53,353 bases of DNA from Folioceros fuciformis (lineage: Eukaryota): contig JBNGIO010006169.1 of NCBI GenBank assembly GCA_049999805.1, forward strand, positions 1 through 53,353, in the 5' to 3' direction. Each line of letters opens with the position of its first letter. Positions within the stretch are counted from its first letter, which is position 1. The notes below the pieces were generated by a model that saw only the letters and a list, made by a program, of their open reading frames with translations, did not search any database and was not told where the DNA came from. The translations under genes were made by a program, and so were the position numbers. Positions 1,996 through 33,288 of this stretch are shown here, piece by piece.

Positions 1996-2304
1996 AGGTC
2001 GACTCCTATCGCACCTTGTCAGCATGCAACGTCCACGCTGCCCCACTCACCCATGGAATGCACTGTACCGTATCACGCTTCAAGCAACCCTTTTTTACAG
2101 CACCCAACCCTGCACTTATCCTCCTCACCACCTTGCTCACCTCTCCTGTGTCTCGCGTCTAGTGCCTGTCTCCCATGCCCCCAATTGCACATTTGAAGGA
2201 CCCATATGTACATATTCACTTCAGTCAAATAGAGTAGGAGACTCGGAGGTTTTAGAAGAAACATTATACCAAGCTAATCAATGGACGGTGTCAGTCTTTA
2301 TGTC

Positions 2305-2671
2305 ATATGTGTGGGTGGGTGAGGGCTTCAGTACTACTATGTCGATATGTGTGGGTGGGTGAGGGTTTCAGTACAACTCCATCGATACATGTGGGTGGGT
2401 GAGGGTTTCAGTACAACTATGTCGACAATAGATGAGTTGTTGGTCGATGAGCTGTTGGTCGATGAGCTGTAGCGCGATGAGCCATTGAACGATGAGATCT
2501 CTTAAACGATGAGTTGGTGGATGAGCTGTTCGGCCATCAATTGTTGCTATGAAAAATGTACACATGTCTCTGGAGTTCTACAGGTACAATGAGTTGTTGT
2601 TGAGAAAGGGTACACATGTCTGTCTAGAGTTCAACAGGTACAATGAGTTGTTGTTGAGAAAGGGTACACAT
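2305..2671. repeat. Compound tandem repeats: 3x 40 bp, ~6x 15 bp, 2x ~53 bp
   Basis: ATGTGTGGGTGGGTGAGGG(C/T)TTCAGTAC... at 2307, 2347 and 2387; GATGAGCTGTTGGTC-like units at 2431-2535; GTACACATGTCT...GTACAATGAGTTGTTGTTGAGAAAGG at 2558 and 2610. Confidence 0.9.
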
Positions 2672-3007
2672 CTTTTTGGAGTTCCAAAGGTACAATATAA
2701 ATGTTGCATGGAAGTCGAAACAAAGTACAGACATGTGAAACCTAAGAAATGGAAACCTTTAGGAAGGGACAATCCAGCTCCTACATAGAAACTTAAGTTG
2801 ACATTGAAACCTTCATTGCTTCATTAGAGCATGGAAGAGGAGGTGTTGCTTCTTATGCTTGTTTGCATTTTACATATATATTGTAGATGCTAGGCTTAGT
2901 GCACAAGCATCAAGGGACCCATACTTCACTACATGCCTACTTTGTAGGTGTGTGAAATGAATGAAACAAGTACAATCATTTGATGTCAAACCATATGACT
3001 CGTACAC

Positions 3008-3105
3008 ATAGGTGGATGATGCAACACTTGGGTTGATGTCAGTAGATGGTTGGGTACAAATAATAATGGATGTTGCAACACTTGGGTTGATGTCGGTAGA
3101 TGGTT
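3008..3105. repeat. Direct duplication with ~53 bp period
   Basis: TGGATG(A/T)TGCAACACTTGGGTTGATGTC(A/G)GTAGATGGTT occurs twice. Confidence 0.85.
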
Positions 3106-3199
3106 ATAATAATGCAGTGCTTGCATTGCGTTGGTGTTGGTAGATGAAGCGTACAAAACTACAGGTGTCAGCAAGATATGCAAATCAAAGTTGGCGTGG

Positions 3200-4160
3200 A
3201 TCAACCTAGATGGCAGATCGATACTTGACCAATAAGGGTCACCTCTGGCTGCACACCAACCTACAAGTCGAATCAAGGCCTGACACTTATCTCTGACTAC
3301 ACACCAACCAAGATGGCAGATCAATGTCTGACCAATANNNNNNNNNNACACATGACAAATCAATGCATGACCAGTAAGGCAGCTCTGACTACACGCCTAC
3401 CCAGATGGCAGATTAATGCCTGACTTGTAAGTGACCAGTAGGTCACCTCTCATGACACACTAACTTGTAAGTGACTAGTAAGCCACCTATGATGACACAC
3501 CAACCCTGATGGCAGATTAATGCCTGACTTGTAAGTGACTAGTAAGTCACCTCTACACACCAATATGGATGGTAGATCAATGCGTGACCTACTTAAGTCA
3601 TGAACTTCTGCACGCCAACCCATATGGCAGATTAATGCCTGACATGTAAGTTATCTCTACACTTCAATACGAATGGTAGATTAGTGCGTGACCTACTTAA
3701 GTCATGTCCTTCTATATGCACCAACCCAACTGGCAGATTAATGCCTGACCACTAAGTCACAACACCAAGTTAGATGGCAGATCAATGTCTAACCGCTACA
3801 TCACCTCTACACACCATTGCAACAGATATGGAAGATATGGTAGATCAATGCCTGACTCCTACGTCACCTCTACACACCACTATAACAGATTTGGTAGATC
3901 AATTCCTGACTAGTAAGTAACCTTCACACACCAATACGCATGGCAGATCAATGCGTCACTAGGAAGTCGTGTACTTCTACACACCAACCCAAATGACAAA
4001 TCCACTCGTGACCACTACGTCACCTCTACACAGCCTGCAGATATGGAAGATATGGAAGATCAATGCATGATTCGCGTACCATTGCACATGGCAGATCAAT
4101 GCGTGACCATTAAGTTACTTCTACACATCAACTCAAATGGCTAATCAATCTATGACCAAA
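3200..4160. repeat. Degenerate minisatellite array, ~45-60 bp units
   Basis: Recurring ATGG(C/T)AGAT(C/T)AATGCCTGAC...TAAGTCACCTCTACACACCAACC, roughly 15-18 copies. The array contains an assembly gap. Confidence 0.85.
3338..3347. other. Assembly gap (10 N)
   Basis: Run of N inside the minisatellite, so the true array length is unknown. Confidence 0.99.
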
Positions 4161-5041: not shown

Positions 5042-5650
5042 TGGCGTGCATGTTCCATTTCGCGGTTACAAATTAATTAGGAACCTGCCAGCAAACAAGT
5101 CAGTGGATATAGATGCATCAATCACGGTGCTGCACTGTTCTGCCAGATTCCAACTTGGCGGCTGATACACAAAGGGCATATACAGAAATGTGAGAATCTG
5201 ATAAGGCACGAAGGCATAAAAAAGGCGACCATCTGCTAATGCACAGAGGGCAGGCACAAAAACGGGAGCATCAGCTACTGCAAAGGGCAGATGCAAGAAA
5301 AGTGGGCATCCGCCTTCATTCCTGACCTACGCATCTCATGGTAGAGTTTGTCTGGTGCGTAGTTGTGCAGATATCCAAGGAAGTGAGCTGCTCACCAATC
5401 CAAGCTGCCTTCAACTTGTGGCCACGTGCCTCTGCTCCTGGCAACGAGCATAGCTAGAAAACCCGTCCCTACCCGCACAGAAGATATCTCTGTAATTCCT
5501 GGTTGATGGACGCAGGCAGATGCTTTAAACCCTAACCCTAAGCCGCAAACCCTGTCTTGTTGCTGGCCTTGATGGCCAGCTTAAGGTTTACTCGTCATGA
5601 CTGCTGTTCAATCACGCCAGTGTTTACCGACAAGCCCCCTGTAGAGGCTT

Positions 5651-8600
5651 TCACATGGCCAGGGGAGGGTAAGGCGCCCCATCCTCTTTCTCCCAGCCTG
5701 CCTCAGGCAATGCTGAGGTTATATGGTTCAACAGTCTGTAAACATTTTCCGGACATCTTCGGTCCCCCACCAGAAACGTCTGCACCTTTTGTTCAAATTC
5801 TATCCAGCTCCGACCAGGTTTCTTCCATGCCCTTGCGCGTAATCTCAACTCATCCACTTCCTTGACGGAGTCCCACATGCCTGCCTGAGCATACAACGTT
5901 CCCATGAGCACATAGGCAGAAGGGTGTTGAGGTTCCAGAGCCCTTGCGCAATCGAACATACACTTGCCCAGCTGCACATTGTTATGTTTTCGGCAAGCAC
6001 CCAACAGCGACAGCCAGACATGTAAGGTGGCAGCCAACGGCATGGTCGAGATCAAGGCTTGTGCCTTCGTCAGGAGTCCAGCACGGCCAAGCAGATCAAT
6101 CACACAGACATAGTGCTCCACTTCTGCACTGATGCCATTATCTCTGCTCATGCTTTCGAAGCACTCCAGGCCTTCATCTACCATGCCTGCATGACTGCAT
6201 GCTGACAGGACAGCCAGAAATGTGACTCTGCTTGGCTTCACCTCCGTCGCACACATTTCGTGATACCGCTGCACACACGTCTTGTAGTCTCCTTGTCTAG
6301 CATAGCCAGCCATCAGTGCGTTCCAAGATACGACGTCAGGCTCCGGCAGAGAGTCGAACGTGTTCTGGGCATCGACCGTGCTCCCACATTTACCATATGC
6401 ATGAATCAGGCAGTTTGCCACAGGAAGACTGCACTCCAAGCCATTCCTCACAATGAGTTGATGAATGTGCACACACGTCTCCAGGGCTCCTGTGTTGCTG
6501 CAGGCCTCCAACGCAGAGAGAAACGTGGCCTGGGTGGGTGGTATCCCTTCTCCTAACATCAACTCCAAGATTTGCAGCGTCTTCTCTCCTTGGTCCTGCT
6601 GGGCATAAGCTGCGATCATCGCATTCCATGTGACAACATCACGATTGCGTAGTTGATCGAACACCCTTCTCGCATCCATGAGGCAGCCACACCTTGCATA
6701 CATGCTCACCAAAGAATTGCTGACAAACACGTCTGATTCAAATCCCCTTGAGGCGGCTTCGCTGTGAATTTCCTTCCCTTTCCGCCGGGACTCCACTTTG
6801 ACACTTTGCCCCTGGATAAGGGTGCCTTCCTCCTTTTCAGCAAGGGAGGCACATGCTTGGAGTGCACTGGCAAATGTCCAAGCATCAGGCCTGATGCCTT
6901 TCATCCGCATTTCAGAATAGAGAAGCAAAGCGTGGTAGCCTTGCTCCTGTTGAGCGTATGCTGCGATCATAGTATTCCATGATACTAAATCGCGGTGACG
7001 AAGTCCAGCAAACACTTTGTGTGCATCCCTGAGGCTTCCACATTTTGAGTACATGCTCACCAGAGTGTTTGCTACGTAAGTATTCGACATCAAGCCACTT
7101 GCAGCAGCTTCCGCATGTATGTCACGTCCCTTTTGCAGAGACATCACCTTGACATTTTGCCCATGGACCAAACAACTTTCCTCCTTTTCGGCTAGGGTGC
7201 CACATGCTTGAAGAGCGCTGGCAAAGGTCCAAGTATCTGGTCTGATGCCTTCCGCCTGCATTCTCCGATAAAGTTCTAGTGACTTTTCCCCCTGGTCGTG
7301 CTGGGCATATGCTGTGATCATTGCAGTCCACAATACCAAGTTCCGGTTGGAGATTCTATCAAAAACTTGCTCCGCATCCCTGAGGCTGCCACACTTTGCA
7401 TACATACTAACCAATGCACTACCTACAAATACTGATGAGTCCAGTGACCTCTCAATAATCTCAGCGTGTATTTCCTTTCCCTTCTGAAGGGCCGCCAATC
7501 TAAACTTATGTCCCTGTACAACTATGCTCTCCTCCTGCTCTGCAAGAATTGCACATGCCTGGAGAGCACCAACAAACGTCCGATCATTTGGCCTGATCTT
7601 TTCTCTCTGCATTCTAAAAAAAATCTGCAATGCCTTGGAACCTTGTCCATGCTGGGAATATGCAGCAATCATTGCATTCCATGGGACCACATCCTGCTGG
7701 GACATTGTTCCCAACACCTGCTCTGCATCCCAATGGCTCCCACATCTTGAATACATGCTAACCAACGTGCTACCAACAAAGACGTCCTTCTCAAACCCGC
7801 ACAGAGAAGCTTCATAGTGTAATTTCTTGCCCGTTTGCAACGATGCCAGTTTGACATTTTGGCCCTCCAGAAATGTACTTGGCTCCTTTCCTGCAAGAGT
7901 ACCACATGCCTGGAGAACACTAACGAAAGTTCTATCATCCGGCGGAACTCCATCGTCTTGCATTTTAGCATAAATTTGCAGGGCCTCACGTCCTTTATCC
8001 TGCTGGGCGTATGCTGCAATGAGAGCATTCCATGACACCACATCACGCTGAGAGAGCGCGGCAAACACGTGCTGGGCATCCGTGAGGCTACCACATTTAG
8101 CATACATGCTAACCAGAGTATTGCCAAGGAAAACATCTGAGTCGAACCCATATTTGCGCACATCGGCATGAATCCGCTTTCCCTCCTGCACGTCCTCCAG
8201 ACTGCTGCATGCCTTCAGCAAGCTGACAAGCGTATATTTGTCAGGCTGCACACCTTCGTCTTGCATCCGCTCATAGCATGCAATAGCCTCTCGATACTGT
8301 CCAGAGTTCCTATACCCAGAAATGATGGCTGTCCAAGAGAAGACACTTCGGTGCTGCAATCTTCCAAACAGCTGCAGCCCATCTGCCAATGTTCCACCAT
8401 TGACATATGCAGCAACCAGGAGCTCGCCCAAATTCCTGTTCAGATCCAATCCATGTTTGGCCAAAAGGGCATGCACTTTCTTGGCATAGATTGAGGCCTT
8501 CTTCTTCATGCAAGCCTGCAACAGCTTCTTACACGTCTGCACAGAAGGTGCAGTCCCGTCCTGGTCCATGTGCAGAAGGGTCTCCAGAACCTTGTCCACC

Positions 8601-9295
8601 TGCCCATCCTTGCACAATTTCTCCACCTCCAAGGCGGTTCCCTGAGTAACCTGCACCCTACAAGGGCCATAGCATTAGACGAAAGCACCGCGGTAGCCTA
8701 CTAGAGCTCGTCTGCTATGGCATCAGAGTGGAGATACCTGTCATGAGTGGGAGTCAACGCACCAACGCATCCATGCCGGCCCATCATCCCATCTGACAGT
8801 CGACTGGCGACCATCGTCGGATGTGGTGCAGCGGTCCACAACTTATTAAGCCACCAAAGGTCCATCGACCTGACGTCACGGTGGCATAGACATGGCTGCA
8901 GGCAAGAAGGCCCAGCCCTCAGAACCAGGGCTGATCCTCCTGGTCATTGATCCACCAAACCTCTGGAAACGACCCATTCCCGTCCACGATGCTCAGCACG
9001 TAATGTGGCACTGATCTGCCATGAGCCAAGCCAAATCGAGCGTGCCTAGTAGCACTTCTTAATGCCTGCATGTAAGAAACATTCATGTCCCACTTCCTCC
9101 GAATTCCTATCATGGCCCAAGCTCCCTACAGGACAGTCCAGAAAAATATAAGCACTTAAAGCCCCCACCTTCCTAAAGCACATGCAGTCACCACACGACC
9201 CAGAAAACGATGTCCATCAGTACCTGCAGGGGAAGCTGCGAATGTAGCAACAGCCCTCTTCCCAGGGACTTAGCTAGCACAACCGAATTCTCCAT
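5651..9295 (-). CDS. PLS-class pentatricopeptide repeat protein, E/E+ type (organellar RNA editing factor); exons 9295-9224, 9065-8961, 8895-8738, 8657-5651
   Basis: The ~1000-aa last exon has P-L-S triplets (VFxGxxLVSMYxKCGSLxDA, DVVSWNAxIAAY, TFxSxLxAC) followed by E1/E2 (EHYVCVIDLLGRAG, WLSLLGACRKH, KKPGRSWIE). It stops before a DYW domain. Three upstream GT-AG exons keep the frame and add MENSVVLAKSLGRGLLLHSQLPLQALRSATRHARF, which resembles a targeting peptide. Confidence 0.95.
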
Positions 9296-10097
9296 GAACC
9301 CAGGAAAAACAAGAACCTGGCTTGAAAATTGCCGAAATCCGAGCTCCCGAAGATTGAGCTCACATGCGCTCCCAACAGTATCGACTCATCATCACAACAG
9401 TGCACGCACCTTCGTAGGCCAGGTGGAACGTCAATGCGAGCTCTTCCCCTTTCTTTGTACTACGTTTCTGTCCAAAGTGTTCACCATGCTTCTGGAGACG
9501 GAGTTGGCTGGTGCTCTCTACCACGGCAACAAGCCCGGCAGGCTCGACACCCGTTGTAGTTAGGTCTCCTTTTTCCCCAATCAAGACGCTCTTGGAGCGT
9601 TAGATACCTTCGGCATCGACATACGAGGGAACTAGCCCTCTTAGTCTTCCGCTTTCGTTTGGATCCTGCCCATCAGCCCGGAGCGATTGACTTTCGATCC
9701 AGTCTGTTCCATCCAGTCTGCAGAGCATTCCAGTCTTATGTGAAAAGCATTACGAGGCCTCAAATTTGACCCCGTCGTCCCGGCCTGTGAATGACTCTTT
9801 TCATGCTGAGGTTACCCTTGAGTTTCAGTGCTTGCTTGCTCCGAACAAGCAAGAGATGCAGACGGTGTGTTGTGAAGCAAAATGCTTCTCAAGACAGATT
9901 TCTATCTCGCGGAATAGAAAGTAAATTACGTTGCCGGAAGAAAAATGTTCTGTACACGGTGCTCTTCACCCCACAGGTCGCAGAGTTTGTCACTCGACAC
10001 TCTACAGACAGTCGAGACTCTGATCACAAGGAGGGAGAAGCTGACCTGGGACTACATGATGTACAATAAAAGAATCTGGGCAGAAAGCTACTACAAT

Positions 10098-13000
10098 TTA
10101 CGATCCACAAGAGATACAGTCCTCTTTGTTCTCCAGTGAGCAAACCATTTGTGCCATCTTCACTTGAAGAGCCTCGGTTTCCATCTCGGAGATCTTCACT
10201 TGCAGAGACTCGGTGTCCATATCAGATATCTTCACTTGCAGGGACTCGGTGCTGTCTACTGGTTTCGCCTTTGGTTTCTCCACTGTCTGATATTCAAGGG
10301 CGGCACACCACACACTCAGTGCCTCGGCACCTACACAATCCCAGGGAGGAGACACTACACTTTACCACTTACCTTCACAGCGGTAGTATCCACGGTGAAC
10401 TTGATGGCATCTGCAGCAGCCCGAGACCGCAAGTAGTACATGCCTGTCTTCAAACCCTGCGCGTGGAGAGGGAACAGTTATAGCCTACACCACAAACACT
10501 TCTTTGCGCAATAGGATCTCTTCAGGATCAGAGTGAGGGATCACCTTCTTCCAGGTGTAGAAATGTAGGGATGTTAATTTTCCAAAATTTGGCTGCTCCA
10601 TGTGGATATTTAGACTCTGACTTTGATCGATGAAAGCACCTCGGGCGGCAGCCATATCAACAAGGCTACGTTGCTTGATCTCCCACACAGTTCTGTGACC
10701 ATGACAAACTTCAGACCATGCAGGTACACACCCACAAACTCAATCCCTTCAATAAGGGTCACTCCGAGTCAGCACCTGTAGATGGCCTTCATGTCGTTTG
10801 GAATAGAACTGATCTGTTGGATAGATCCGTTATGGAAAATGACTTCATTCTTCAGATCACGAGTCCAGAGTCCCATGTCCGTCAGGTCGTGCAGGAGATG
10901 TTTGTTAACCACGACAAACTCCCCACTGCAAAGCAGCGCACACAGTGTTAGTCGTCCCGATGTAAAAGCAGATCAGACCACATCCAAGATACCAACATGT
11001 ACGCGTACCTGAGTACTCTCCTGCTGTAAATGTTGGAAGTGTACGGTTCGAAACATTCATTGTTGCCCAGTATCTGACTGGTTGATGCTGTTGGCATTGG
11101 AGCCACAAGAAGAGAGTTCCGCAACCCATGCTTAGCAATGGATTCGCGCAGGCCTGTCCAGTCCCATCGGCTAGAGGGTTTCACGTCCCACAGATCTGGT
11201 TGCAAGAGACCCTGAGGTAGAAGGAAAGGTGATTACATCAATTTCAATAAGCACTTGTGCTCAGCACATGGAAGGGCTACTTAGCAGGAGCCTCTGGCCT
11301 TGTAGATGAGCTGAGCAGGCGGCATGTTTACCTTGCTTGCTGGGCTGCCTTCGAATGACGAGTAAGGACCCTCTGACACTGCAAGCTCACACGATGTTTT
11401 CAAAGCGTGGAAGTATATCGTCTCAAAAATGTCCTGGTTTAGTTTTTGAGCCTGCCACGAAATGCATTCTAATGTTAGCGAATCTCATGAAACATTCTTC
11501 CGCAATCCAGCTCTGTATAAGATGGCAGGGAGAGTGACATCACCTCATCGGCATCAAAGGACATGCCTAGAAGGATGAAAGCATCAGCTAGACCCTGGAC
11601 ACCAATTCCAATTGGTCTGTGCCTCATGTTGGAAACCTTGGCCGTTTCCACAGGGTAGTGGTTCACATCAATGATCCTGTTCAGATTCCGAGTCACTATG
11701 GCTGTGATCTGTTGCAAGCAACAGAACGTTGGTCAGTGCACAAGGTCTCGCCATCGTTCCCCAGAGAATGAAGAGTAGAATCTATGCCACAGACTCGTAC
11801 CTCTCCAAGCTTTTCTAAGTCAAAATAACGATTCTTGTGGCCTCTGCTGCCAACCATTTTGGTGGGGTGAGCTTCCAGAGGAACTCCCTGTAGTAGGAGA
11901 GGCCCATGAGTCAAGGGAGAACATGTACAGGAGTAGAGGACGACGTTTGAACTAGTGACTAACCCGTTCACGAACAAAACGAGGCAGGGCTATAGAAGCC
12001 AGGTTGCAAACTGCTGTCTCTTCTGCGCTTGTGTACTCCAGGATCTCAGTACACAAGTTGGAGGACTTGATTGTACCGAGATTCTGTTGATTGCTTTTCC
12101 TGTTACAAGCATCCTGAGCAATGATTTACTGTTAGTAAACCATATCTCATGTATGGAGCCAACCATACAAGCGAAGGAACGGGCAACTCTTCACCTTGTA
12201 CAACATGTACGGATTCCCCGTTTCAACTTGAGCTTCCAGTATTGAGAACCACAGCTTCTGAGCTGGGACACTCCTCTTCGCCTTACCCTGGATGAGAACC
12301 GACAATGAGAACAAAACTGGAGGAAACACCTTCAGATGAAAAGCGGAAGTGAGGTCCACAATACCTCTGCCTCGTACTTTTCGTAGAGCTTTTCAAATTC
12401 AGAACCCCAGCAATCGGCGAGCCCAGGTGCCTCGTTAGGACAGAACAGCGACCAGTCCTTACCGGTTTCCACCCTCTCCATGAAAAGGTCAGGAATCCAC
12501 AGGCCATAGAACAGATCTCGTGCCCTGTTTTCCTCCTGCGGATATGAAGATTAAAACAAAAAAGCTTAACAAGTGTGAGGTTGCAGATCTAGCTTTCCCT
12601 GCCCACATACTCCACAGTTCTCCCAAAGACAAATTCAATCAAAATGGACAAGGGCAGGTACGAACCTTCCCATGGTTCTTCCGGAGGTCCAGCCAGTCAA
12701 AGACATCCGCATGCCATGGTTCTAAATATATCGCAAACGCACCTGGTCATTGGCACACACATTCTAGTATAATAAGACGACCAGGATTGCTATGAGGCGA
12801 ACGGAAGCAGATCACCATGACATTCACAGTAGGCACCTTTGCGCTTCCCACCACCCTGGTCAACATATCGGGCGGTGTCATTGAAGACACGCAACATAGG
12901 AACGATACCATTGGATGTCCCATTTGTTCCACGAATGTAGCTATTGGTAGCTCGAATGTTATGGACCGAAACCCCAATGCCCCCCGCAGACTTGCTGATG

Positions 13001-14259
13001 ACGGCACATTCTTTCAGAGTGTCATAAATGCCTTCGATGCTGTCATCCTTCATGCAGACTAAGAAGCAGCTACTCAGCTGCACAACCACACCAGGTCAGA
13101 AAACCATAGCGTAACTCATCTGCATGGCCAAGAGCAAATGCACATGGCAGAGGCCACATTGATTCAAAACCTATCACTCAGGCAGGTGGATAGGTCGAAC
13201 CTGAGGCCTCTGGGTTCCAGCATTAAAAAGTGTGGGTGATGCATGGGTAAACCAACGCTGCGACATCATGTGATAGGTTTTGATGGCTGACTCGATGTCT
13301 TCTTTGTGGATTCCGACAGCCACACGCATCAGCATGTGCTGCGGCCTCTCAACAACTTTACCATTCACCTTCAACAGGTAAGACCGCTCCAAAGTCTTGA
13401 AACCAAAGTAATCATAATCAAAGTCCCTGTCGTAGATGACTTCGCTGTCCAGCCGGTCTTTGTTCTGACAGAGAAAGCCCTCAGAATTCAAAACTCCAGT
13501 CATCCCACCAATGGCCATAAATCAACAAACAAGCATAGCCTTCTCGCATACCGCTTTGATAATCTGGTACACATCATCCCCAATCAAGGGGGCCTTCTTC
13601 CCAGACTTGAGATCCACATGATTATACATAACTTCGACACTGGAATAAATCACGACCACCATGAATTGCTTGCACTGCCATCTCTGCACTGAACATAATG
13701 GTACTACACGAACAAGCCAGCAAGGCAACGACACACCACTTACGTCGCGGAAAACGACTTCATCGTATTCTTGTGCAGATTGGAAACCGCAATCCGAGCA
13801 GCAAGCTGCAAAACCTCCCAACAGTCAGCAGATTGGCCACAGGGGTGAGAGCGGCAGCAGCTGCCAACCAGGAGACTGAATGCAGATCCCACCCACACCC
13901 CACCCCTTCCCTAACACTACCACACTGGGCCGTGAATTCACAACACTAAACCAACAATTACAAGCCCGCGTCCGCGAAATGCATCGTCCCCAAACCGAAA
14001 CCCACAAAGTACAGCAGAGAACCGGTACTACCAGGGCATAGTCCGGATGCGAAGCCGTCATGGCGGCAGCGGTCTCGGCTGCGAGCTCGTCCAGCTGGCT
14101 GGTGTGCACCCCTGCGTACACTCCAGCACAGACCTTCATGGTGACCACAACGGGGTCACAGTAGTCCGGGTTGAGGCCATAGCTCAGCTTCTTCAGCCGT
14201 GCTGTGATCTTGTCGAAATGCACAGCCTCCTGCCGCCCATCACGCTTGATGACATACAT
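10098..14259 (-). CDS. RNR1: Ribonucleoside-diphosphate reductase large subunit (about 17 coding exons)
   Basis: ATP-cone N-terminus [79 protein letters not shown]-terminal CISCGS*. All junctions traced as GT-AG. Confidence 0.97.
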
Positions 14260-14450
14260 CTTCTCAGAATTCACAGAAGCCCCAGAAACCGCGCTGCGAA
14301 AAAGCGGCAGCACACGCTGGGTTGTGAACGCAGCACGGAGAGCTCTAAGCGAGCTTCAATCCGCACGTATTTGTACCCTCAAGGTCTGCCGCTCTCGCGG
14401 CTGTGCCCGGGCTAGGGCTGCCCGTGATCCCAGGGCCTATTTGAAGCACC

Positions 14451-14680
14451 TGGCGGGAGCCACAGTGCCTGCTGCTCATCTGCACCCGGGCTGAAGCTTC
14501 CCCGACACATCGATGCCCCACCCTTGAAGCCGGGGCGGTGCTAAGGATGGCTGCCGACCTGCAACAGGTCTTTGCCTTCCTGAACCCGCAGAGCGGGATT
14601 CTGGTGGCAGTTAGTCCTGCCGCCGGGAAGCTCCAAGTTTCGACTTCGCGTGGCGGGAAATCTTGCAGAGGCGGGAAGTT
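14451..14680 (-). promoter_or_regulatory. Cluster of E2F-type sites upstream of RNR1
   Basis: TGGCGGGAAA at 14651-14660 (TTTCCCGCCA on minus) plus near matches at 14451, 14591, 14620 and 14670. Plant RNR genes are established E2F targets. Confidence 0.7.
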
Positions 14681-14823
14681 GGAAGAGTGGCGCCCACGGC
14701 ATGATCCCGGGTGCGTTGGGCTGGGCTGTCTGTGGTTCCGTTGACCCGGCCGTGATTCCCGTCTCTGCCATCAGCCTCGCCAGATCTGGGATGTGATGGT
14801 GTGTGGGCTGGTGTGATGGGTTG

Positions 14824-15430
14824 CCCTTCTGCACGCAGACTATGAGGGACTGTGCCTTCTGTGCAGTCAAGTACAAGTTATTGTTGGCCTGCATGAAGAA
14901 GAAGGCCCCAGGCTGTACCAAGAAATGGCAAGGCATGGGTTGGATCTGAACAGGAGTTTTGCGAGATCCTGACTACGTTACTGCACATGTCAAATAGTGG
15001 AAGATGGGCAAATGGACTGCAGCTGTTTGAAAGTCTACAGCGCCGAACTGCCTTCTCTCTCTGGTTGTAGAAACGCTGGACTGTGTGGAGGGGATGCAAG
15101 ACGAATGTGTGCAGCCTGACAAATATACTCTTATCAGCGCGATGTGGTGTCATGGAATGCCCTGACAGTGGAACATGTGTAGCAAGGTGAAGGACGTAGG
15201 GCCCTGCAGGTTCATGCCGAAATGCAAGGCGAAGGGATTCACCAAGTGATAGAACTTTTGTTAAGAGTTCTCCAGGCATGTGCTATCTTTGACCAGAAGG
15301 AGTCAAGCAAATTTCTTCAGGGCCGAAATGTGAAACTGGCACCGGTTCAAACATGCCATCAATCATAGTATGAAGGTTATCTGTGCTGTTTTGAAAAGGA
15401 CGTTTTTGTTGGTAGCACGTTGGTTAGCAT
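14824..15430 (+). pseudogene. Decayed inverted copy of the 5' part of the PPR gene (source ~8580-7754)
   Basis: Shared blocks GCATGAAGAAGAAGGCC, TTGGATCTGAACAGGA, GATGCAAGACGAA.GTGTGCAGCCTGACAAATATAC, GATGTGGTGTCATGGAATGC and TTTGTTGGTAGCACGTTGGTTAGCATG, with many deletions and frameshifts. Confidence 0.9.
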
Positions 15431-15435
15431 GCATG

Positions 15436-15708
15436 CAAGCTTGGAGAGCATGGTCGCTGTTTCCTGTCCCAGAGGCTAGAGGGTTTCACATCTCACGTGT
15501 CTGGCTGCAAAACGCAATGAGTTCAAGGAAGAGAGGTGACCAGACAACTTCCACCGAGCTCGGCACTTTTGCACCTAACTTAAAAGGGCTACTGTACAGG
15601 AGCCTCTGGCATACACGGTGCACATGCTTGAAGAGCACCAACAAATGACCGATCATTTGGCCTGATCCTTGGGACGACACCCTGCTGGGACATTGCCCCC
15701 AACACCTG
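15436..15708 (-). pseudogene. Internally inverted block: RNR1 fragment (source ~11130-11300) joined to PPR fragment (source ~7551-7720)
   Basis: GGCTAGAGGGTTTCAC and AAGGGCTACT...CAGGAGCCTCTGGC match 11169-11298. GCACATGC...AGAGCACCAACAAA...CCGATCATTTGGCCTGATC and CCTGCTGGGACATTG..CCCAACACCTG match 7551-7720. Both are in the same orientation as their sources. Confidence 0.85.
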
Positions 15709-16290
15709 AGGACATGGAGGCGATCTGCATGTAATTATTCGGTGTAACAAGATTGTAGCGATGGAATCATGCTCTGATGTAAGGATGGTGTTGGGTCAAA
15801 GAACTGTGTGGGAGATGAAGCAACGAATTATTGTGGAATGCCAAAGGTGTGTTCTCGACAATGTGCACATAGACCTGCCATCTTTGGGAAATCAACATCC
15901 CTGCATTTGTACTCCAGGCGGGGTGTGATTCCTCACTCCTGATTCGTAAGAGCTTGTGTTTGCTCAAGAACACTGTGGTTCGGGCTGTAACTGTCTGTTA
16001 CATGTACAAGGTCTGGAGAGGGTTATGAATCATTTGCCCTCTTGGGTTGCTGAGATGCGATCAACTGTAGAGCCGAATAGTTCAAAGTGGTCACATGTAG
16101 TGCCTCAATTTGGGATCGCCTCGGCGCCTAGGCACAGAGTGTGGAGTATGACGTGATTGAATGTCAGGAAGGGGAGAAACCAAAATTGAAATCAGTAGAC
16201 AGCACCGAACCTCAGCACATGCAGATGTTACAACTGGTTTGCTTGCAGGAGAGAAAGGATAACTGTGTAGCTTGCAGGTCTTTTGTGCAT
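15709..16290 (+). pseudogene. Decayed inverted copy of the RNR1 3' end with introns (source ~10800-10100)
   Basis: AGAACTGTGTGGGAGAT.AAGCAACG, AACATCCCT.CATTT.TAC.CC and GGAGAAACCAAA...CAGTAGACAGCACCGA are shared. The translation EKPKLKSVDSTE...LVCLQERKDNCVAC matches RNR1 [12 protein letters not shown]...[14 protein letters not shown]. Confidence 0.88.
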
Positions 16291-18228
16291 TATTTTTGTG
16301 TCAGCGATGTCACCTTCACCGTGACCCTCCTTCTGCCTGGAGTGTCGAAGCTGTCGATTTCCAGGGTCTATAGAGCAGTCGCACGTAGGCAGCGGACACG
16401 GGAGTTTCAAGGGTTTAAGCTGTCTCGTAGTTCTGGAGTGTCTGAGGACAACCTCTGAGCACCAGTTGCATGAAGGGCCAACCATTCTTTCTGCACAAAC
16501 CGGCAGCTGAATTCTCTTCCCATCCTTTTCTCAGAGCATGTGGGACTTTCGTCAAGGTGATGTTTCCGTGTGGCTTTGTAAGAGTCGTCGACTGGAGCAA
16601 GCATGACCGACCAAAATCTGCCGTGCACGTTTCTCAAACCCAGCGGAGCGACTCTCATTCGTCATCTGGTGGGCCGGGCTGGTATCCCCTTCAAACTCCA
16701 TGCACATGGAAGGCAGGGAATGAAGCCGTCTGAATTCCGTGACGGGAGATCAACGAACTCCTCTGTAGCACGGAATTTCCATGGATTAGAGCCTAGGGAA
16801 AGTATCCCGGTCAGAAGGAATGGGGGCCAAGGTCACCGTCATGCTGTGAGCGTTGCTCTCCTGCTTCAGTGAGGACATTGGAAGGCAAGAAAGCAGGTAT
16901 GAAGAATCTGAGAGGCACATTCGATCGTTCTCCACCGCAAGATCCGTGAGTAAGTTAGCGGTGGGCTTCTTTCTCCTCATATCCTGACGATGGTTTCCTT
17001 CCTCCTGTGTATCGCTGACTGCACGATGACGGCAGTTCCAGCCTTGTTCGTCCCCGACTCCACTCGAGTTACCAGAGCCTACCAAGATCAAGGCCGTTGT
17101 TCGTGGAACATTCGGGAGGCCTCCCGGACATACAGACACAAAAGCGGCAAATGATCACGCCTGTCCCAGCTCCATCTGTCAAATTTCTGTCGCTGTTAGG
17201 GACCACACATTTCAAACTGTGGACCCACGGAGAAGCGGATAGAAATGGGGGGCAACTGTCCTTCCCTGTACAGTACGTAGAATGCTCCTCTACGCACTGT
17301 GTAATGCAGCATGGCATGTGCTCAGCGTGCGCATAATGTGAGATTGGAATCACTAAACAGAAGGCAGACTGGGAAACCGTTGGGGGAAGAAAGGACTCGG
17401 TCTGAAGGTGGGGACAAGATTGGAGGTTAAACTTTGTTGGGCCCATAGTAAGACTCCACGTTGCACAGCAGAGCCCGTAGAGAAGTTCCACACGGTGACG
17501 CCGGGCATGGGCACCATTTCTTTACCCAGGTTAAATCCTGATCTGCGCATGCTGTGCGGCCACGTCCACCATTGGCTCCAGCGGAACTGGGTGCCGATTT
17601 ATCAGCAGGATTATCACCAACGAGGATGAGATGCTTTGAGCCCTCCAAATTCTGGGATGCCAGCCAGCTGCAGCAGCAGCGGTGCAGAAGCGGGAGAGCC
17701 AGGTGAGGTGTAGGTGGCGGAAGAGCCCCCAGGCTATGCTTTGCCACGCCTGCCTTCCCCCTGCCTCTCAAATTCCTGCAGGTGCATTTCTTTGTTGCTG
17801 CCCGGCCTCTTGCTGCCTCCAGGCTCCAGCATTTTCTCTTCCGCCTTCCCTGGCCTGCGCTTTCCGTCCAAGCATTTTCCGGTCGAGGAGTTTGGGATTC
17901 TGAACATCCTAAGCATTTTTGCTTCCTGAAGTCGAGGTGGGTGTTGCTGCAGGAAAGGAGCAGGGCGGTTGCAGCTGCCTGAGCTTTCTGAGCATGGGAG
18001 CAAGTGTGGAGAGCAGTATGGGAGCGTAGACTCCGGGGCTGGTTTTGGGTTTAGGCTGCTTGGGGCCTGCCTGTGTAAGAGAGCCTGGAGGATAGGTGCT
18101 GTGCCTATGTCGCTGTCTGGAAGTCTCAGAGGCTGGAAGTTCGGGAAGTGCCATTGCTGAATGCCCGAGTGTGAATCAGCTCTTGCACTGCTTGCGGAGA
18201 GCGGATTCGTTTGTTTGGTTTGGGAAGA

Positions 18229-28632: not shown

Positions 28633-30669
28633 AAATACTGTATACAGGCCCATCACAATTAGTGAACCAAACCTTTCTCCTCCATCATCACAAGCTTCTC
28701 ATTAAACTCAACACAATCCTAGCTAATGTCTTGATGGGATCTACATGAGCCTGGAGAAGTAACGTAAAGTCCCCGCAGACAGGAAACGCTAATCATCTCT
28801 CGACAAGCTCTTGTTCGCAAACTCCCTTGCACACCGTGGTACCAGTACACCAATGTAACATCATGAGCAAGATAATAAAGCTCAAGACGATCTTGAAACT
28901 CGTCCCCCTCTTCTTCGGATGGGGCGAAACCCGGTGATAAGATAAGCAAAACGACGTATCAATGAAAATGCTTTCTCCGCACCACTTGTCGGCACTGACA
29001 ATGCCGCTGGCTGGCGCATTCACCAGTGTGCAGGACGAGCCAGCTTGCCCGAGTTGCGATGAAAGACATAATAGTGGAGCACATGTTGTGCAGGCGGTAC
29101 AAAACAATGTCGTTCACGTCCCAGACCCCAGAGTCAGGCGCTTCATCCATAGATTTCGAGACGGATCCATGTGAAACCTCCCGCACTGGAGTACATGCAA
29201 CACAAGACAACGCAAACACACACATCGAAACGGGCGCCGTTACAGATAACGCAAGTGATGATCATGCAGGAAAGGGAAGTTTGAACGGATTATTGACTTC
29301 AACACAAGGCATGGGAACAGGCTTGCTAGCCTGCTTGCTTTCTTGCTGCAGCTGCCGCTCCTGCTCCTGTTCCTGCGGTTGCATTCCCTGCTGCCTGCAA
29401 AAAAAAACTGCATGCCACATGCCGTGTCCTTGCATGCCCCGGTACGCCTGGCGTGACCTGGCCTGCGCAGTTGCAGCGCAACCATTGCTGGAAGCCGTCG
29501 CACGCAATGCAACGCAGCGGACGCGGCAAACCACTGAACGCACTGGAACCAAGGCTCCTAGTACCGGCAGGAGCGGGCGGGCCTGGCCGCAGCTCCGCCA
29601 TGGCCGTGGCCACAGGAGGGTGCGCGAGACAATGCGGCGAAACCTGGCGCATTCAATGTGGCGAAACCGTTGAAAACGGCCGGCGTTAAGGGCAGGGCAA
29701 CGCGGCCCCACAGCCGCTTTAATGCCGCAGCCACTACGTGGATATACGTATCGCCTCGCATTTACTGGCTGTACACTGCAAGTACTGTGTGTAACTACGC
29801 GCTTGACATTCCCAATAATGATGCCCGCTGTGGGCCGTGAGCTTCATCGTCCTTCGCCCACCCGAGACGATTTGCCCCGGATTTACCCCAAATACGACCG
29901 CGACTATACATACGCAGGTAACACTAATACTGTGTGGGCCCGTTCCGTTGGACGGTGGGTAGTGTCTTTGCAGAACCAGGTTACCAGAAGCCTGCGTCTG
30001 CCGGCCTGCCCGCTCGTGACACTTGATTGCATCTCTCCCAGACATTGCGCACTGTTGCTTTTGCGAAGCAACGGCCCGCCAGCCTAGACACTGCGCCGGC
30101 GGCCTGTTTCGGGCCTTGGCAGCGCCCTGTTTGGCCGGGAATGCCCTCCTCTCTTGGGGCTGGGCCCAACGGAACGGGGCTTGTTGTGTACTGGGCCGAC
30201 CAACCATCTGTCATGGCCTCGTCATTACGCCTCCTTGTCGGCTCTTCCTCCCACCAACCAATATTTTTTTTTCTCTGTGCTGTCCACGAATCGAGTACGG
30301 TGTGAGGGACTGCAAATATCATCGTCCCTTTTCAAACCACGACTGACAAGATTTCATTTGCTTAGGTACACCACATAATGGTGTTTATTGAGCCTCGTGT
30401 AAGTAGTTGGTGCTACCAGAATCCGACCCATTGTTTGTTGAGGTAGTAGAACATTCGCTCTCCTATTTTGAGTGATTGGTAAGATGGACTCTTCCAATGA
30501 GACCCACATATAAGCTACTTTATAAAGTGTACGAGACTTAGTCCAAGGTTGTCCTCAAGCCCATTTTGTGATTCCATGGTACCACATTTATGAGGAAACT
30601 GGGCTGAGAAGTTATGTTATGTGTTAGAGTTCTTTGTGTACAGCTCATTGTAGAAAGATCAATGAAGAA

Positions 30670-31140
30670 AGTGTCTTTGAAAGACATTAGGAATTTGAAA
30701 GGACATTTGTGTCTTTGAAAGACATTAGGGATTCCAAAGGACATCCGTGTATTCCAAAGACATTAGGGATTGGAAAGGACGTGTGTGTCTTCAAGAGACT
30801 TTAGAGTTTCAAAAGGATGTTGGTGTGGTCAAAAGACATTAGGGATTCAAAAGGACATTCATGTCTTCTAAAGACATTAGGGATTGGAAAGGACATGTGT
30901 GTCTTTGAAAGACATTAGGGATTGGAAAGGATGTTTGTGTCTTCGAAAGATATTAGGGATTCGAAAGGACGTTCATGTCTTCGAAAGACATTAAGGATTG
31001 GAAAGGACGTGTGTGTCTTTGAAAAACATTAGGGATTCAAAAGGACATTCGTGTCTTCGAAAGACATTATGGATTGGACATTACGGATTGGAAAGGATGT
31101 GTGTGTCTTCAAAAGACTTTAGGGATTCAAAAGGACATGC
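30670..31140. repeat. 38-bp tandem satellite, about 12 copies
   Basis: AAAGACATTAGGGATT(GG/CA)AAAGGAC..(T/C)GTGTCTT units start at 30680, 30718, 30756 and onward. Confidence 0.92.
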
Positions 31141-31612
31141 AAAACATCAATGAAGAAAGACGTCTCATTCAAAAAGCTTTGAAGAATCGAAAGGACGCAA
31201 TTTACTTCGAGGAGGAAAGGGTGTCCTTTTCAAAAGCTTTGGAGATTCGAAAGGACATATGATGAAGAAAGAGTGTCTTTTCAAAAGACTTTGGAGACTT
31301 TGGAGGGACATGTGATGAAGATTCGAAAGGACGTGTGATGAAGAAAGAATGTCCTTTCAAACAAACTTTGCAAATTTGAAAGGACATGCAAGAGATTGAT
31401 GAAGAAAGAGCTTCTCGTTCGAAAAGCTTTGTAGATTTGAAAGGACATGCTTCACTTCACGAAACTATAGGACATCGTCTCCTTGGCTCACAAAGACTTT
31501 GCAGATTTGAAAGGACATGCAAGAGATTGATGAAGAAAGAGCTTCTCTTTCGAAAAGCTTTGTGGATTTGAAAGGACATGCTTTACTTCACGGAACTATA
31601 GGACATCGTCTC
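31140..31612. repeat. Derived longer-unit repeats, including a ~131-bp duplication (31370 and 31501)
   Basis: GATGAAGAAAGAG...AAAAGCTTTG..GATTTGAAAGGACATG units; two near-identical copies end in AACTATAGGACATCGTCTCC. Confidence 0.85.
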
Positions 31613-33288
31613 CATCGCCATCAATAGGTGGGATTAGGTATTAGAGGAATCTACAAGCTACATGAAAGTCCTTACACTTGACTTTGTGGGTGGTTGAGGA
31701 TGAATTCATGTGCATGTATATTCTTCTTAGCACTAATGTTGGTCATTGTTTTTTTTGGGTTACGTGTGAAACAACTTATGGAACATGATTGGTCACATTC
31801 TTTGAGCACACACAATAGGTAACATGTAGGCTTGAGAACACGGTCCTCTAGGCTGAATATTCTCTCATGGGTGGTTTGATGTACTTGTGTGTAGAAAAGA
31901 GTCAAACATGTATCCCAATCACCCACAAAAACCACTTCGTAAAATGATAAAGTTTTGTTGTTTTTTGGGCGCCGAGCTGCACCCACAAAGCTTGATCCAC
32001 ATCTGGCAAACCTCGTGACAAGCAAATCACGTAAGGAAATTCCGGATGTTTGGGCTGATTGAGACAAAGGTGAGCAAGCATAGACAGAAAAAAGGGAGAC
32101 AAAAGAGAAAGCACAAAGTGCTGGGGAGCCTGGTGTATGAAACGAGGATGTCAGAACATCTCTAGGCCATCGGTTAAACCGGGGGTGTAGTAAACATGGT
32201 TCAACGTTGACTAGGAGGGGCAGCTGCAATGGGAACAGAATGATGATTACCTGGGCTGGCGAACGTGGGTATGATCGATTTTGTCTGAAGCCTGATCGCG
32301 GGTAGAGGGGTCGGGGAGGCCGGTGGGGCCCGTTCTGGCCTCAGGTTTCGCCACGCCAGACGTACACTACTCAAACGGATGCTGTCAGAAACAGAGGCTG
32401 TACCAGGAAGGAGAGGAGCTTGGCCACCACTTAAACGGGGCTCCAAATTTGGAGGCGGGTTTCGGGGTAGAAGGCGGGGGGCTGTGGGAAAGCGGGCTCC
32501 TGCTGCTGCTGCCGCTGCCAGTGGCTGGGCCAATCATGGGTGGCTTTTGGCGGGAGCTCTAGAGAGAGGAGAGAGGAGAGAAGAGAGAGAATGAGCTGCG
32601 GTGGCGAGGCTCCCTGCCTGCCGGGATGGCGAACTCGGAAGGCAAGCCTGGCCACAGCAGCTGGATGGATGGACCATGGATGGACGATTGCTCACCTCAT
32701 TCATTGCAGTAAAGAAGTTCTAGAACGTGCCTGCAGCAGAGGAAGAAAGGGACGCTGGAGCAAGCGGTTGCGGGAAGTGATGAAGAGAGTAGAAGAGGAG
32801 AAGGATGGTTGAGCGGGTTTGGTCATTTCTCGCTCGCAGAGCTCGCGTTGCTCCGTTTTCAGGCGCTTGCAGTGCTGTGGATGAGCGTCTTGGCTGCTTT
32901 CCATGCTGCGGATTGGGAATTTCTGAGACTTGATTGTCAATTGGCTCCTCTGGAGTGAAACAAGTTGTCGAGATTGTCGTTTTTGTTCCCCGAGGCCGAG
33001 AAGAAGGAATTGGAGGACTAGTATGGTTGTTCTCGACATTTGGCCAGGCTAGGGGGTTGCTGGTTGTCTATTTTGTTATCAGGAAGAGCAGGTTTTGAGC
33101 TTTATGTTCTTGTAGGAGGCAGACAGCTTGTGTTTGTTGCCTGTCTTTGAGCTGGGAAAGATTTCGCTGCTGGAAGCCAGAGCGTTCGCAGTTGTGTTTG
33201 TTTTCCTTGTCATAGTCTTGGTGTTGGTCTGCAGTAGCTGTTGGCGTTGTGCATTTCGTATTTGGTGGTGAGGAAGAAAGTGCTGGCC

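Follow-up and report, generated by a model that had tools for sequence, protein, structure and literature searches.

A rotated mosaic of two neighbouring genes, PPR and RNR1, upstream of RNR1 in Folioceros fuciformis

The intergenic DNA upstream of the gene for the ribonucleotide reductase large subunit (RNR1) in Folioceros fuciformis holds a copy that is almost certainly an old, dead pseudogene, a mosaic duplicated at the DNA level and built only from two neighbouring genes. Within the 53,353-nt stretch of DNA that we analysed, hereafter the window, this copy spans positions 14824-16274, and weakly up to ~16480, and is made of four blocks (A to D), all of them derived from two genes on its left with 72-83% identity over aligned columns (Table 1). 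Once blocks B and C are turned back together, the copy becomes one co-oriented read that runs through the PPR gene from 8583 to 7550, crosses an 8-nt filler and continues through RNR1 from 11298 to ~9960; except for the filler, the preliminary description of this DNA had anticipated this read. The re-inverted copy is a rotation of the contiguous donor segment 7550-11298, which at the donor locus reads from 11298 to 7550. As a trace of DNA rearrangement the copy is genuine yet unremarkable, an old remnant of a dead pseudogene, and the mechanism behind it is not decidable from the locus alone.

Both donor genes are transcribed from the minus strand, RNR1 first and the PPR gene second. The PPR gene matches the Pfam families PPR_2 (6e-110), PPR (1e-94) and E_motif (1e-8), and RNA-like contigs cover it over 5500-8624, while RNR1 carries ATP-cone and Ribonuc_red_lgC domains. 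The exon map of RNR1 was drawn by tblastn with P0126, and a spliced contig of 2919 nt from run X4 maps in pieces to 14032-14372, 13201-13464, 12833-13077 and 9812-10286. The stretches that served as donors are 7550-8583 (or 8615) in the PPR gene and ~9960-11298, without 10796-11153, in RNR1. The copy itself lies 3.5 kb from the donor and ~450 bp upstream of the 5' end of the RNR1 transcript, which agrees with the earlier placement of the insertion beside the RNR1 promoter.

Table 1. Donor genes and parts of the copy (positions are those of the window)
Feature	Position	Strand or orientation	Donor positions	Remarks
Donor gene 1, PLS-class PPR gene with E motif	5651..8674	minus		1007-codon open frame
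Donor gene 2, RNR1 (ribonucleotide reductase large subunit)	9812..14372	minus		multi-exon; ATG ~14259, stop ~10100
Block A, PPR 5' part	14824..15449	gene sense on plus	8583 to 7736	BLASTN
A-B junction	15450..15464			~13-15 nt assignable to neither donor in a column-by-column comparison with both
Block B, RNR1	15465..15610	gene sense on minus (donor orientation)	~11150 to 11298	5' exon sequence and upstream intron
B-C junction filler	15611..15618			8 nt (ATACACGG); joins donor 11298 to donor 7550
Block C, PPR	15619..15709	gene sense on minus (donor orientation)	7550 to 7601 and 7678 to 7721	BLASTN
Block D, RNR1 3' part	15711..16274	gene sense on plus	10795 to 10108	BLASTN
Weak co-linear extension of D, RNR1 3' UTR	16422..16479	plus	10018 to 9960	local alignment, marginal

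BLASTN recovered the four blocks in the orientations and with the donor gene order that had been proposed beforehand, the proposed coordinates being good to ~20 bp. A comparison of 14500-16900 with the whole window (word size 7, E<=1e-3) gave 10 non-self HSPs, all 10 in the claimed orientations and within 7550-8580 of the PPR gene or 10246-11298 of RNR1. In a more permissive search block A split into 14824-15138 (donor 8580 to 8222, E 1.4e-49) and 15134-15449 (8051 to 7736, E 1.7e-65), and block B appeared as 15462-15610 (11157 to 11298, E 2.5e-17). Block C is composed of 15619-15670 (7550 to 7601, 47/52 columns, 90%) and 15666-15708 (7678 to 7720, 38/43, 88%), and block D, with a z of 92 against 200 shuffles, of 15711-16226 (10795 to 10228, E 1.4e-49) and 16204-16274 (10178 to 10108). 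Block A is identical to its donor in 498 of 615 aligned columns; its homology may begin at ~14790 (donor ~8615), it has lost 177 bp internally (donor 8230-8053) along with smaller deletions, and it contains in-frame stops. Identity in block B amounts to 41/55 columns in the exon and 61/83 in the upstream intron, and in block D, where four partial or whole exons stand with their introns retained, to 248/336 in exons and 149/209 in introns. The extension into the 3' UTR scored 20, the maximum in 200 shuffles being 18 (z 5.2). In a self-BLAST of the whole window, 7 of the 52 listed repeat pairs join donor and copy, while the remaining 45 pair members of local tandem arrays, or repeats inside the PPR gene, at distances of no more than 1.5 kb; no other duplicated sequence of the window was found at the copy site. 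Alternative PPR repeat units match less well than the assigned ones (59-63% versus 78% for block A, 77-79% versus 90% for block C). Short stretches of 49-51 bp in the copy reach 92% identity; we do not read them as evidence of selection or gene conversion, since a rough binomial estimate places them within what ~30 windows at 80% would give. Nothing points to a present function of the copy.

The A-B junction (7731 to 11150) is the left breakpoint of an internal inversion and, together with the C-D junction (7721 to 10795), one of the two junctions of a single inverted interval; blocks C and A stop next to each other in the donor, at 7721 and 7731-7736. The ancestral form of the copy was, with near certainty, a ~2.4-kb sequence made of PPR 8583 (or 8615) to 7550, the 8-nt filler and RNR1 11298 to ~9960. 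It is likewise near certain that later deletions cut it to ~1.66 kb, and that its central 257 bp flipped, 358 bp of RNR1 (10796-11153) and ~10 bp of the PPR gene being lost at the breakpoints. We also considered one large inversion acting on a co-linear copy and rejected it, as it would give the order C-D-A-B instead of A-B-C-D and a rotation would thus still be required; a simple inversion alone leaves unexplained the 358 bp missing between re-inverted B and D. The retained introns, with 292 aligned non-coding columns in B and D of which 210 (72%) are identical, indicate that copying took place at the DNA level, in line with what had been claimed, and a retrocopy or processed pseudogene, whose introns would have been removed, does not fit. 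The PPR-RNR1 chimera that the preliminary description saw here stands at the level of the sequence but not as a reading frame: stops and frameshifts interrupt it, and no intact ORF is left.

Short-read contigs from X1, which may be the sample from which the window was assembled, cover 13909-15602 and 15604-18000 with 0 differences and bridge the left boundary as well as the A-B and C-D junctions. No listed contig spans the B-C junction with at least 31 nt on each side. The one-base gap at 15603 falls inside a 12/12 match to RNR1 (GGAGCCTCTGGC), and as this match crosses the gap the two X1 contigs must be truly adjacent. No RNA record was listed for 14400-16900 and cover by X4 is almost nil over most of the copy, which says nothing on expression. 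The same contigs bear on the question of whether the fragments came from a paralogous PPR-RNR1 locus elsewhere, or were captured by a Pack-MULE- or Helitron-type element, which we consider improbable. The genome has many PPR paralogues, X1 depth rises to 349 over the PPR gene versus ~12 for single-copy DNA, and one other contig (in X1, X2 and X4) aligns at 80% or more to a short part of block A, at ~14866-14889. However, block D and most of A are one contig deep in X1 at a likeness of at least 80%, with no closer relative seen; A and C adjoin each other in the local PPR gene and are partnered with pieces of the gene next door. Moreover, the local PPR protein outscores 120 database homologues, being the best match of the copy among the 121 tested (55% over 101 aa, 110 bits; runner-up 37%, 81.6 bits). 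Capture by a transposon is further opposed by the DNA around the copy: over 14300-17700 there was no TIR, LTR or TSD and no repeat pair flanking the copy (longest inverted pair 21 nt at 86%, longest direct pair 23 nt at 74%), the flanks are single-copy with an X1 depth of one contig (~12.5), and among the 20 flank and intergenic ORFs none had a Pfam match at or above the curated cut-off, so that neither a transposase nor another domain was found there (18 had no match at E<=1 and two had weak sub-threshold matches).

Tentatively, we attribute the copy to local break repair or to template switching in replication. A chromosome break or a stalled fork at the 14.8-kb site would have been repaired with sequence copied in cis from the neighbourhood, as in SDSA "filler" or MMBIR/FoSTeS: the copying end would have read the PPR gene downstream from ~8600 to 7550, jumped back upstream to intron position 11298 of RNR1 and read on to ~9960, the small inversion with its deletion may belong to the same event or to a later one, and the patch would afterwards have decayed as a pseudogene. 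Such a backward jump would create a rotated junction of the tandem-duplication type without any free circle. The templates are indeed in cis, all blocks coming from 3.5-7.3 kb away from the insertion site, two in each orientation, and outer ends that lie 1.35 kb apart in the donor are allowed by a copy-paste tract and are not predicted by a cut circle. With SDSA patches of double-strand breaks and with MMBIR/FoSTeS products the copy shares the mosaic of nearby sequences in both orientations, the short insertions at junctions and the absence of transposon hallmarks. The unassignable insertions measure 8 nt, ~13 nt and 1-2 nt, long homology is absent from the junctions, and the donor sites 11298 and 7550 joined at B-C share no sequence; at 20-30% divergence short insertions can be read and microhomology cannot. 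Templates for the 8-nt and 13-nt fillers were not found in the window, where the 13-mer of the A-B junction has no other occurrence and the 8-mer has none on the plus strand and one as its reverse complement, at 30745, about 1.6 occurrences of an 8-mer being expected by chance. Part of the maize literature documents filler DNA taken from nearby sites, sometimes mosaic, and the NHEJ fusion of adjacent co-oriented genes (PMC2686159), and gene-carrying SDSA filler has been described in another study (PMC3445842). Plant filler DNA in the cases documented there is mostly 8-131 bp, versus which a patch of ~2.4 kb stands at the large, upper end, and the copy is a candidate member of this class. Larger patches have reportedly been seen by Wicker et al. 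in 2010.

Pure template switching does not predict that the ends of A and C should be nearly contiguous, and an inversion step is needed. The two halves of the copy have also diverged unequally, which fits no single-event model neatly: at neutral-like sites the PPR-derived part is the less diverged, with 190/237 (80%) identical third codon positions against 82/127 (65%) in the RNR1-derived part, whose non-coding columns stand at 72%, these estimates depending for both halves on the alignment. This contrast would fit two independent insertions at one fragile site, the 3' fragment of RNR1 first and the 5' fragment of the PPR gene later, with a rotation that would be accidental. Yet codon positions 1 and 2 are alike in the two parts (393/474, 83%, for PPR versus 207/264, 78%, for RNR1; p = 0.14, no difference), only 8 nt separate the two pieces, the inversion spans both halves, and in the cases that Takahashi & Innan treat (PMC7188851) so exact an adjacency is deemed very unlikely for random insertions; with divergence estimates that shift with the alignment, we find two insertions very improbable. 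A single genome underlies our reading of which locus was donor and which recipient, and of how many events took place.

A rotated order with a junction of this kind also recalls duplications that passed through extrachromosomal circular DNA. The preliminary description had proposed the reinsertion of a ~3.7-kb circle; in such a course, donor 7550-11298 would have been closed by NHEJ with the 8-nt filler into a 3.75-kb circle, cut between the PPR gene and RNR1 and put back in inverted orientation beside the RNR1 promoter 3.5 kb away, before the small inversion and decay. The rotated block order, the fusion of both ends of one contiguous segment through an NHEJ-like scar (donor 11298, 8 nt, donor 7550) and the DNA-level copy with its introns are what a circle would leave. 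Circular intermediates were inferred from the same signature for human duplications, in the cases presented by Takahashi & Innan 2020 (PMC7188851) and Chicote et al. 2020 (PMC7450558), and the signature is likewise used there for cattle, whose colour-sidedness translocations are cited as circular-intermediate cases. With the duplications discussed in these two papers the copy shares the rotated two-block order, the fusion junction with few inserted bases and no homology, and the DNA-level copy that is not in tandem with its donor. However, the diagnostic of circle reinsertion given in those accounts places both outer ends of the copy at one donor point, and here they lie at ~8583-8615 and ~9960, although later erosion is possible. 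The missing 1.35 kb, or 36% of the circle, left no trace in either flank: donor parts 8600-9960, 10796-11153 and 11299-14372 were not found in the two flanks on either strand, except for the UTR extension, outside of which 8600-9960 gave z values of -0.8 to 2.6 (at most 2.6 in the left flank). That a free circle should land 3.5 kb from where it arose would be a coincidence, the caveat of Takahashi & Innan on same-chromosome cases (PMC7188851) applies, and the inversion with its 358-bp loss is still needed. In size, ~2.4 kb compares with 500 bp up to hundreds of kb among the eccDNA duplications reported in those texts; the extra internal inversion with a 358-bp loss sets the copy apart from them. 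The partial-inversion ("lariat", eltDNA) duplications in the account of Takahashi & Innan 2020 (PMC7188851) share the flip of part of the fragment but occur there without rotation, whereas in the present copy the fusion junction lies inside the flipped part and the flip is accompanied by the loss of 358 bp. The reinsertion of a circle is not established, and we hold it to be unlikely; a circle is allowed but not required, since a tandem-duplication junction and serial template switching would give the same junction, and the copy alone does not prove a circular DNA intermediate.

A tandem duplication at the donor, of segment 7550-11298 or of a larger RNR1-PPR unit that an NHEJ deletion then shortened, could have formed the PPR 5'-RNR1 3' junction between the genes; a spanning piece of 2.4 kb would then have been duplicated in inverted orientation upstream of RNR1, and the tandem duplication finally collapsed by unequal recombination. 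This route, possible though doubtful in our view, reads B-C as exactly the point where head and tail of one contiguous donor segment meet across a short filler, and leaves the outer ends unconstrained, which fits the 1.35-kb gap. Takahashi & Innan, where they treat false positives for eccDNA-type patterns (PMC7188851), name exactly such a route as the typical one, and NHEJ deletions with filler down to 8 bp merge adjacent co-oriented genes in the maize cases described in PMC2686159. However, at least four events are needed (duplication, inverted local copy, collapse and inversion), and the chimera sits upstream of RNR1 on the opposite strand, not between its parental genes as a tandem duplication would place it. 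No remnant of a tandem duplication at the donor and no extra flanking block was seen in the 53-kb window, although homologous recombination can collapse such a duplication without a scar. The p2/p1 chimera of maize, as far as Goettel & Messing 2009 present it (PMC2686159), likewise links the 5' portion of a gene to the 3' portion of its neighbour through an intron junction with short filler DNA; it is in place within a tandem array and expressed, whereas the PPR-RNR1 chimera is dead, lies away from its donors in inverted orientation, and has its genes in the "wrong" order for the locus as it now stands.

Rotated, or "circularly permuted", duplicates are among the few footprints at the sequence level that can reveal circular DNA or tandem-junction intermediates, and catalogues of them exist for human and cattle but hardly for plants; the portions of the literature covered by our search contained no plant case of an eccDNA-type permuted duplicate. 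We doubt that the patch is a germ-line footprint of the 3.75-kb circle, or of a donor that served replication as a circularised or looped template. If it were, a circle made of parts of two adjacent genes would have re-entered the chromosome beside its origin in a seed-free land plant, and plants would have a natural case to set beside the circular-intermediate duplications of cattle and human. Whatever its origin, the copy is a clean, small and fully resolved example in which every junction can be read, and it would become a test case once the genomes of relatives are compared.

Upstream of RNR1, the gene for the large subunit of ribonucleotide reductase, lies a mosaic duplicate (the copy, about 14824-16480) in which blocks A and C match the neighbouring PPR gene and blocks B and D match RNR1, B and C being inverted relative to A and D. 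A BLASTN search (word size 7) of 14500-16900 against the window returned 10 non-self HSPs, every one within PPR 7550-8580 or RNR1 10246-11298, in agreement with the four blocks of the preliminary description; the limits tabulated below were taken from a search with permissive scoring. Identity over aligned columns reached 81% in A (498/615), 74% in B, 74% in the exons of D and 71% in its introns, and other PPR repeat units fitted less well, giving 59-63% where A has 78% and 77-79% where C has 90%. When the whole window was compared with itself, donor and copy were linked by 7 of 52 repeat pairs, the other 45 being local tandem arrays or internal PPR repeats.

Blocks of the copy and the two donor genes (window coordinates)
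Feature	Position	Strand	Donor match	Remark
Block A	14824-15449		PPR 8580->7736	
Block B	15462-15610		RNR1 11157->11298	
Block C	15619-15708		PPR 7550->7601 and 7678->7720	
Block D	15711-16274		RNR1 10795->10108	
Weak co-linear extension of D	16422-16479		10018->9960	z = 5.2
PPR gene	8674->5651	minus		PLS-class, E motif; 1007-codon open frame
RNR1 gene	14259 to ~10100	minus		~14 exons; tblastn with fern RNR1 P0126

The window consists of land-plant nuclear DNA and also encodes a cytochrome P450, an IMP dehydrogenase, a GH32 hydrolase and a WD40 protein. Ferns and lycophytes supply the best named homologues of PPR and RNR1, with only 34-53% identity for PPR, and the plant is therefore probably seed-free. 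The exon map of RNR1 and its transcript ends (14372 and 9812, from a spliced 2919-nt contig of run X4) place the donors, along the transcribed strand, in the order RNR1, a spacer of about 1.1 kb, PPR. No ATG occurs close to the 5' end of the PPR frame, whose first Met lies at about codon 35, and an RNA-like contig of X4 spans 9223-9771, within the spacer and immediately past the 3' end of RNR1. An additional upstream exon or a 5' UTR may thus belong to the PPR gene, in which case the two genes would be separated by hardly any true intergenic DNA. Within the PPR ORF, 6570-8124 contains internal repeats, about 350 bp long, that correspond to PLS triplets; an unusual insert of the form …LAEKEE…VKV/L…LQKGK.IH…, about 25 aa in length, occurs in each and is shared by block A. 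The last exon of RNR1 carries a 36-bp tandem repeat within the C-terminal coding region (10156-10251, minus strand; 2.7 copies, 88% matches), coding for repeated 12-aa units that the fern RNR1 P0126 lacks; the alignment of the copy over this region shows an overlap or gap (16204-16226), so that unit number may differ between donor and copy. At 11039-11077, extra contigs of runs X1 and X2 match an RNR1 exon over these 38 bp alone and carry unrelated sequence on either side; they probably represent a contaminant or a motif conserved in another RNR-like gene. Elsewhere, a satellite-like array whose periods are 38 bp (10.7 copies) and 114 bp (30671-31613), after which come repeats of 53-131 bp, sits in an AT-richer stretch (GC 0.425 over 30001-32000); a cluster of 40-104-bp tandem repeats (2299-4146) surrounds a 10-N assembly gap at 3338-3347; and a CCAGTC microsatellite (271-477; about 35 copies, 79% matches) lies within GC-rich DNA (0.60) that has long open frames on both strands.

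The junction between B and C, which the preliminary description had singled out for inspection, reads donor 11298, 8 nt, donor 7550: RNR1 homology runs up to …GGAGCCTCTGGC (within an intron), the filler is ATACACGG, and PPR begins at TGCACATGC (within the ORF). Between A and B, PPR homology stops at 7731-7736 and RNR1 homology starts from about 11150 after some 13-15 unassignable nucleotides, while between C and D the PPR match stops at 7721 and RNR1 resumes from 10795 after 1-2 nt. The ends of A and C are contiguous in the donor, as inversion of the stretch 15450/15465-15709 would predict, and the A/B and C/D junctions are, put another way, the pair produced when a single donor interval is inverted once. 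Between the end of re-inverted B, at about 11150, and the start of D, at 10795, RNR1 lacks 358 bp, none of which was found in 14373-17650. By this junction anatomy, the ancestral copy read PPR 8583(8615)->7550, filler, RNR1 11298->~9960, and the proposal that it is a rotation of donor segment 7550-11298 is upheld; later changes comprised the inversion and its accompanying deletion, the shortening of A by 177 bp (donor 8230-8053) and of C by 77 bp, and numerous small indels.

Contigs of the short-read run X1, possibly the same sample from which the window was assembled, span 13909-15602 and 15604-18000 with 0 differences to the window, and those of X2 span 14888-15493, 15742-16201 and 16238-17625; the left boundary and the A/B and C/D junctions are thus bridged. 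Exactly one base (15603) is uncovered between the two X1 contigs, as expected from a single-base bubble in a k = 31 graph; it lies inside a 12/12 match to RNR1 that runs 7 nt into the second contig, and the two contigs must therefore be adjacent. None of the listed contig pieces crosses the B/C junction with at least 31 nt on both sides.

Introns are present in B and D (83 and 209 aligned intron columns; 292 non-coding columns in total, at 72% identity), which rules out a retrocopy and bears out the earlier view of a DNA-level event. The tblastn HSPs between the local PPR protein and the copy fall in several frames and each contain 2-4 in-frame stops, the RNR1 pieces are also spread across frames, and the longest ATG-initiated ORF on the gene-sense (+) strand of 14700-16600 has 92 codons. 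As read from its frames, the copy is dead; given the stops and frame splits, the announced PPR-RNR1 chimera holds as a sequence and not as a gene.

The genome contains very many PPR paralogues, and X1 depth over the PPR gene rises to 349 against about 12 for single-copy sequence. Among 120 database homologues and the local protein, the local PPR matched the copy best (55% over 101 aa, 110 bits; next best 37%, 81.6 bits). At a likeness of at least 80%, X1 covers D and most of A at the depth of a single contig (12.5-12.8), and no closer relative is seen in these stretches; extra depth (27.4) at 15091-15507 coincides with strongly conserved PPR motifs, and one other contig aligns with a short part of A near 14866-14889. 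The local genes are also favoured as donors by two further points: A and C are contiguous in the local PPR, and they are partnered with pieces of the gene next door. The copy bears no mobile-element signature: no repeats flank it within 14300-17700 (longest inverted pair 21 nt, longest direct pair 23 nt), none of 20 flank and intergenic ORFs reaches the Pfam cut-off (18 without a match at E<=1, two weak and sub-threshold), and its flanks are single-copy in X1.

Both halves are equally diverged at codon positions 1+2 (PPR 393/474 = 83%, RNR1 207/264 = 78%, p = 0.14), and at neutral-like sites the PPR half is closer to its donor (position 3, 190/237 = 80%) than the RNR1 half (position 3, 82/127 = 65%; non-coding, 210/292). 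This gap could stem from unequal age (two insertions), gene conversion within the PPR half or alignment noise, and counts slightly against all single-event models. Taken jointly, two insertions independent of each other, a donor at a distance and capture by a transposon seem the least probable of the readings. The divergence of 17-35%, on a scale uncalibrated for rate in this lineage, suggests that the copying event is old.

The rotated junction could be obtained by three routes: a free circle, the copying of a tandem-duplication junction, or a local repair or replication patch. The preliminary description had proposed that a free circle of 7550-11298 was reinserted, and its reasoning was sound; circles are inferred from exactly such rotation in the sections drawn on here of Takahashi & Innan (PMC7188851) and Chicote et al. 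(PMC7450558). The logic in those sections is that of a single opening point, which places the outer ends of a copy at one donor position; here they fall at about 8583-8615 and about 9960, and the 1.35 kb between them, 36% of the circle, is undetectable in either flank. The circle does not pass its most specific test. The donor is also just 3.5 kb away, and same-chromosome cases are flagged in the cited part of Takahashi & Innan as open to 'complex nested duplications' (PMC7188851). The circle is one of several explanations, and an unlikely one. Slightly less doubtful is the copying of a tandem-duplication junction from a donor whose duplication later collapsed, a route which the same part of that work treats as a typical false positive for circle patterns (PMC7188851), and which recalls maize, where NHEJ fusions of adjacent co-oriented genes with filler down to 8 bp are described in the portion consulted (PMC2686159); it takes about four events. 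We tentatively prefer a patch of local repair or replication, of the SDSA-filler or MMBIR/FoSTeS type, in which the copying end would have read PPR 8600->7550, jumped back to 11298 and continued to about 9960. One such event would cover the template proximity, mixed orientations, short junction insertions and unconstrained outer ends, while still requiring an inversion step; with the present data, this route cannot be told apart from Chicote's replicative version, in which the template switch takes place on a donor that is looped or circularised. Though well resolved, the copy is an ordinary scar left by local structural rearrangement, and it would gain interest mainly if comparative data made it a dated, polarised example.
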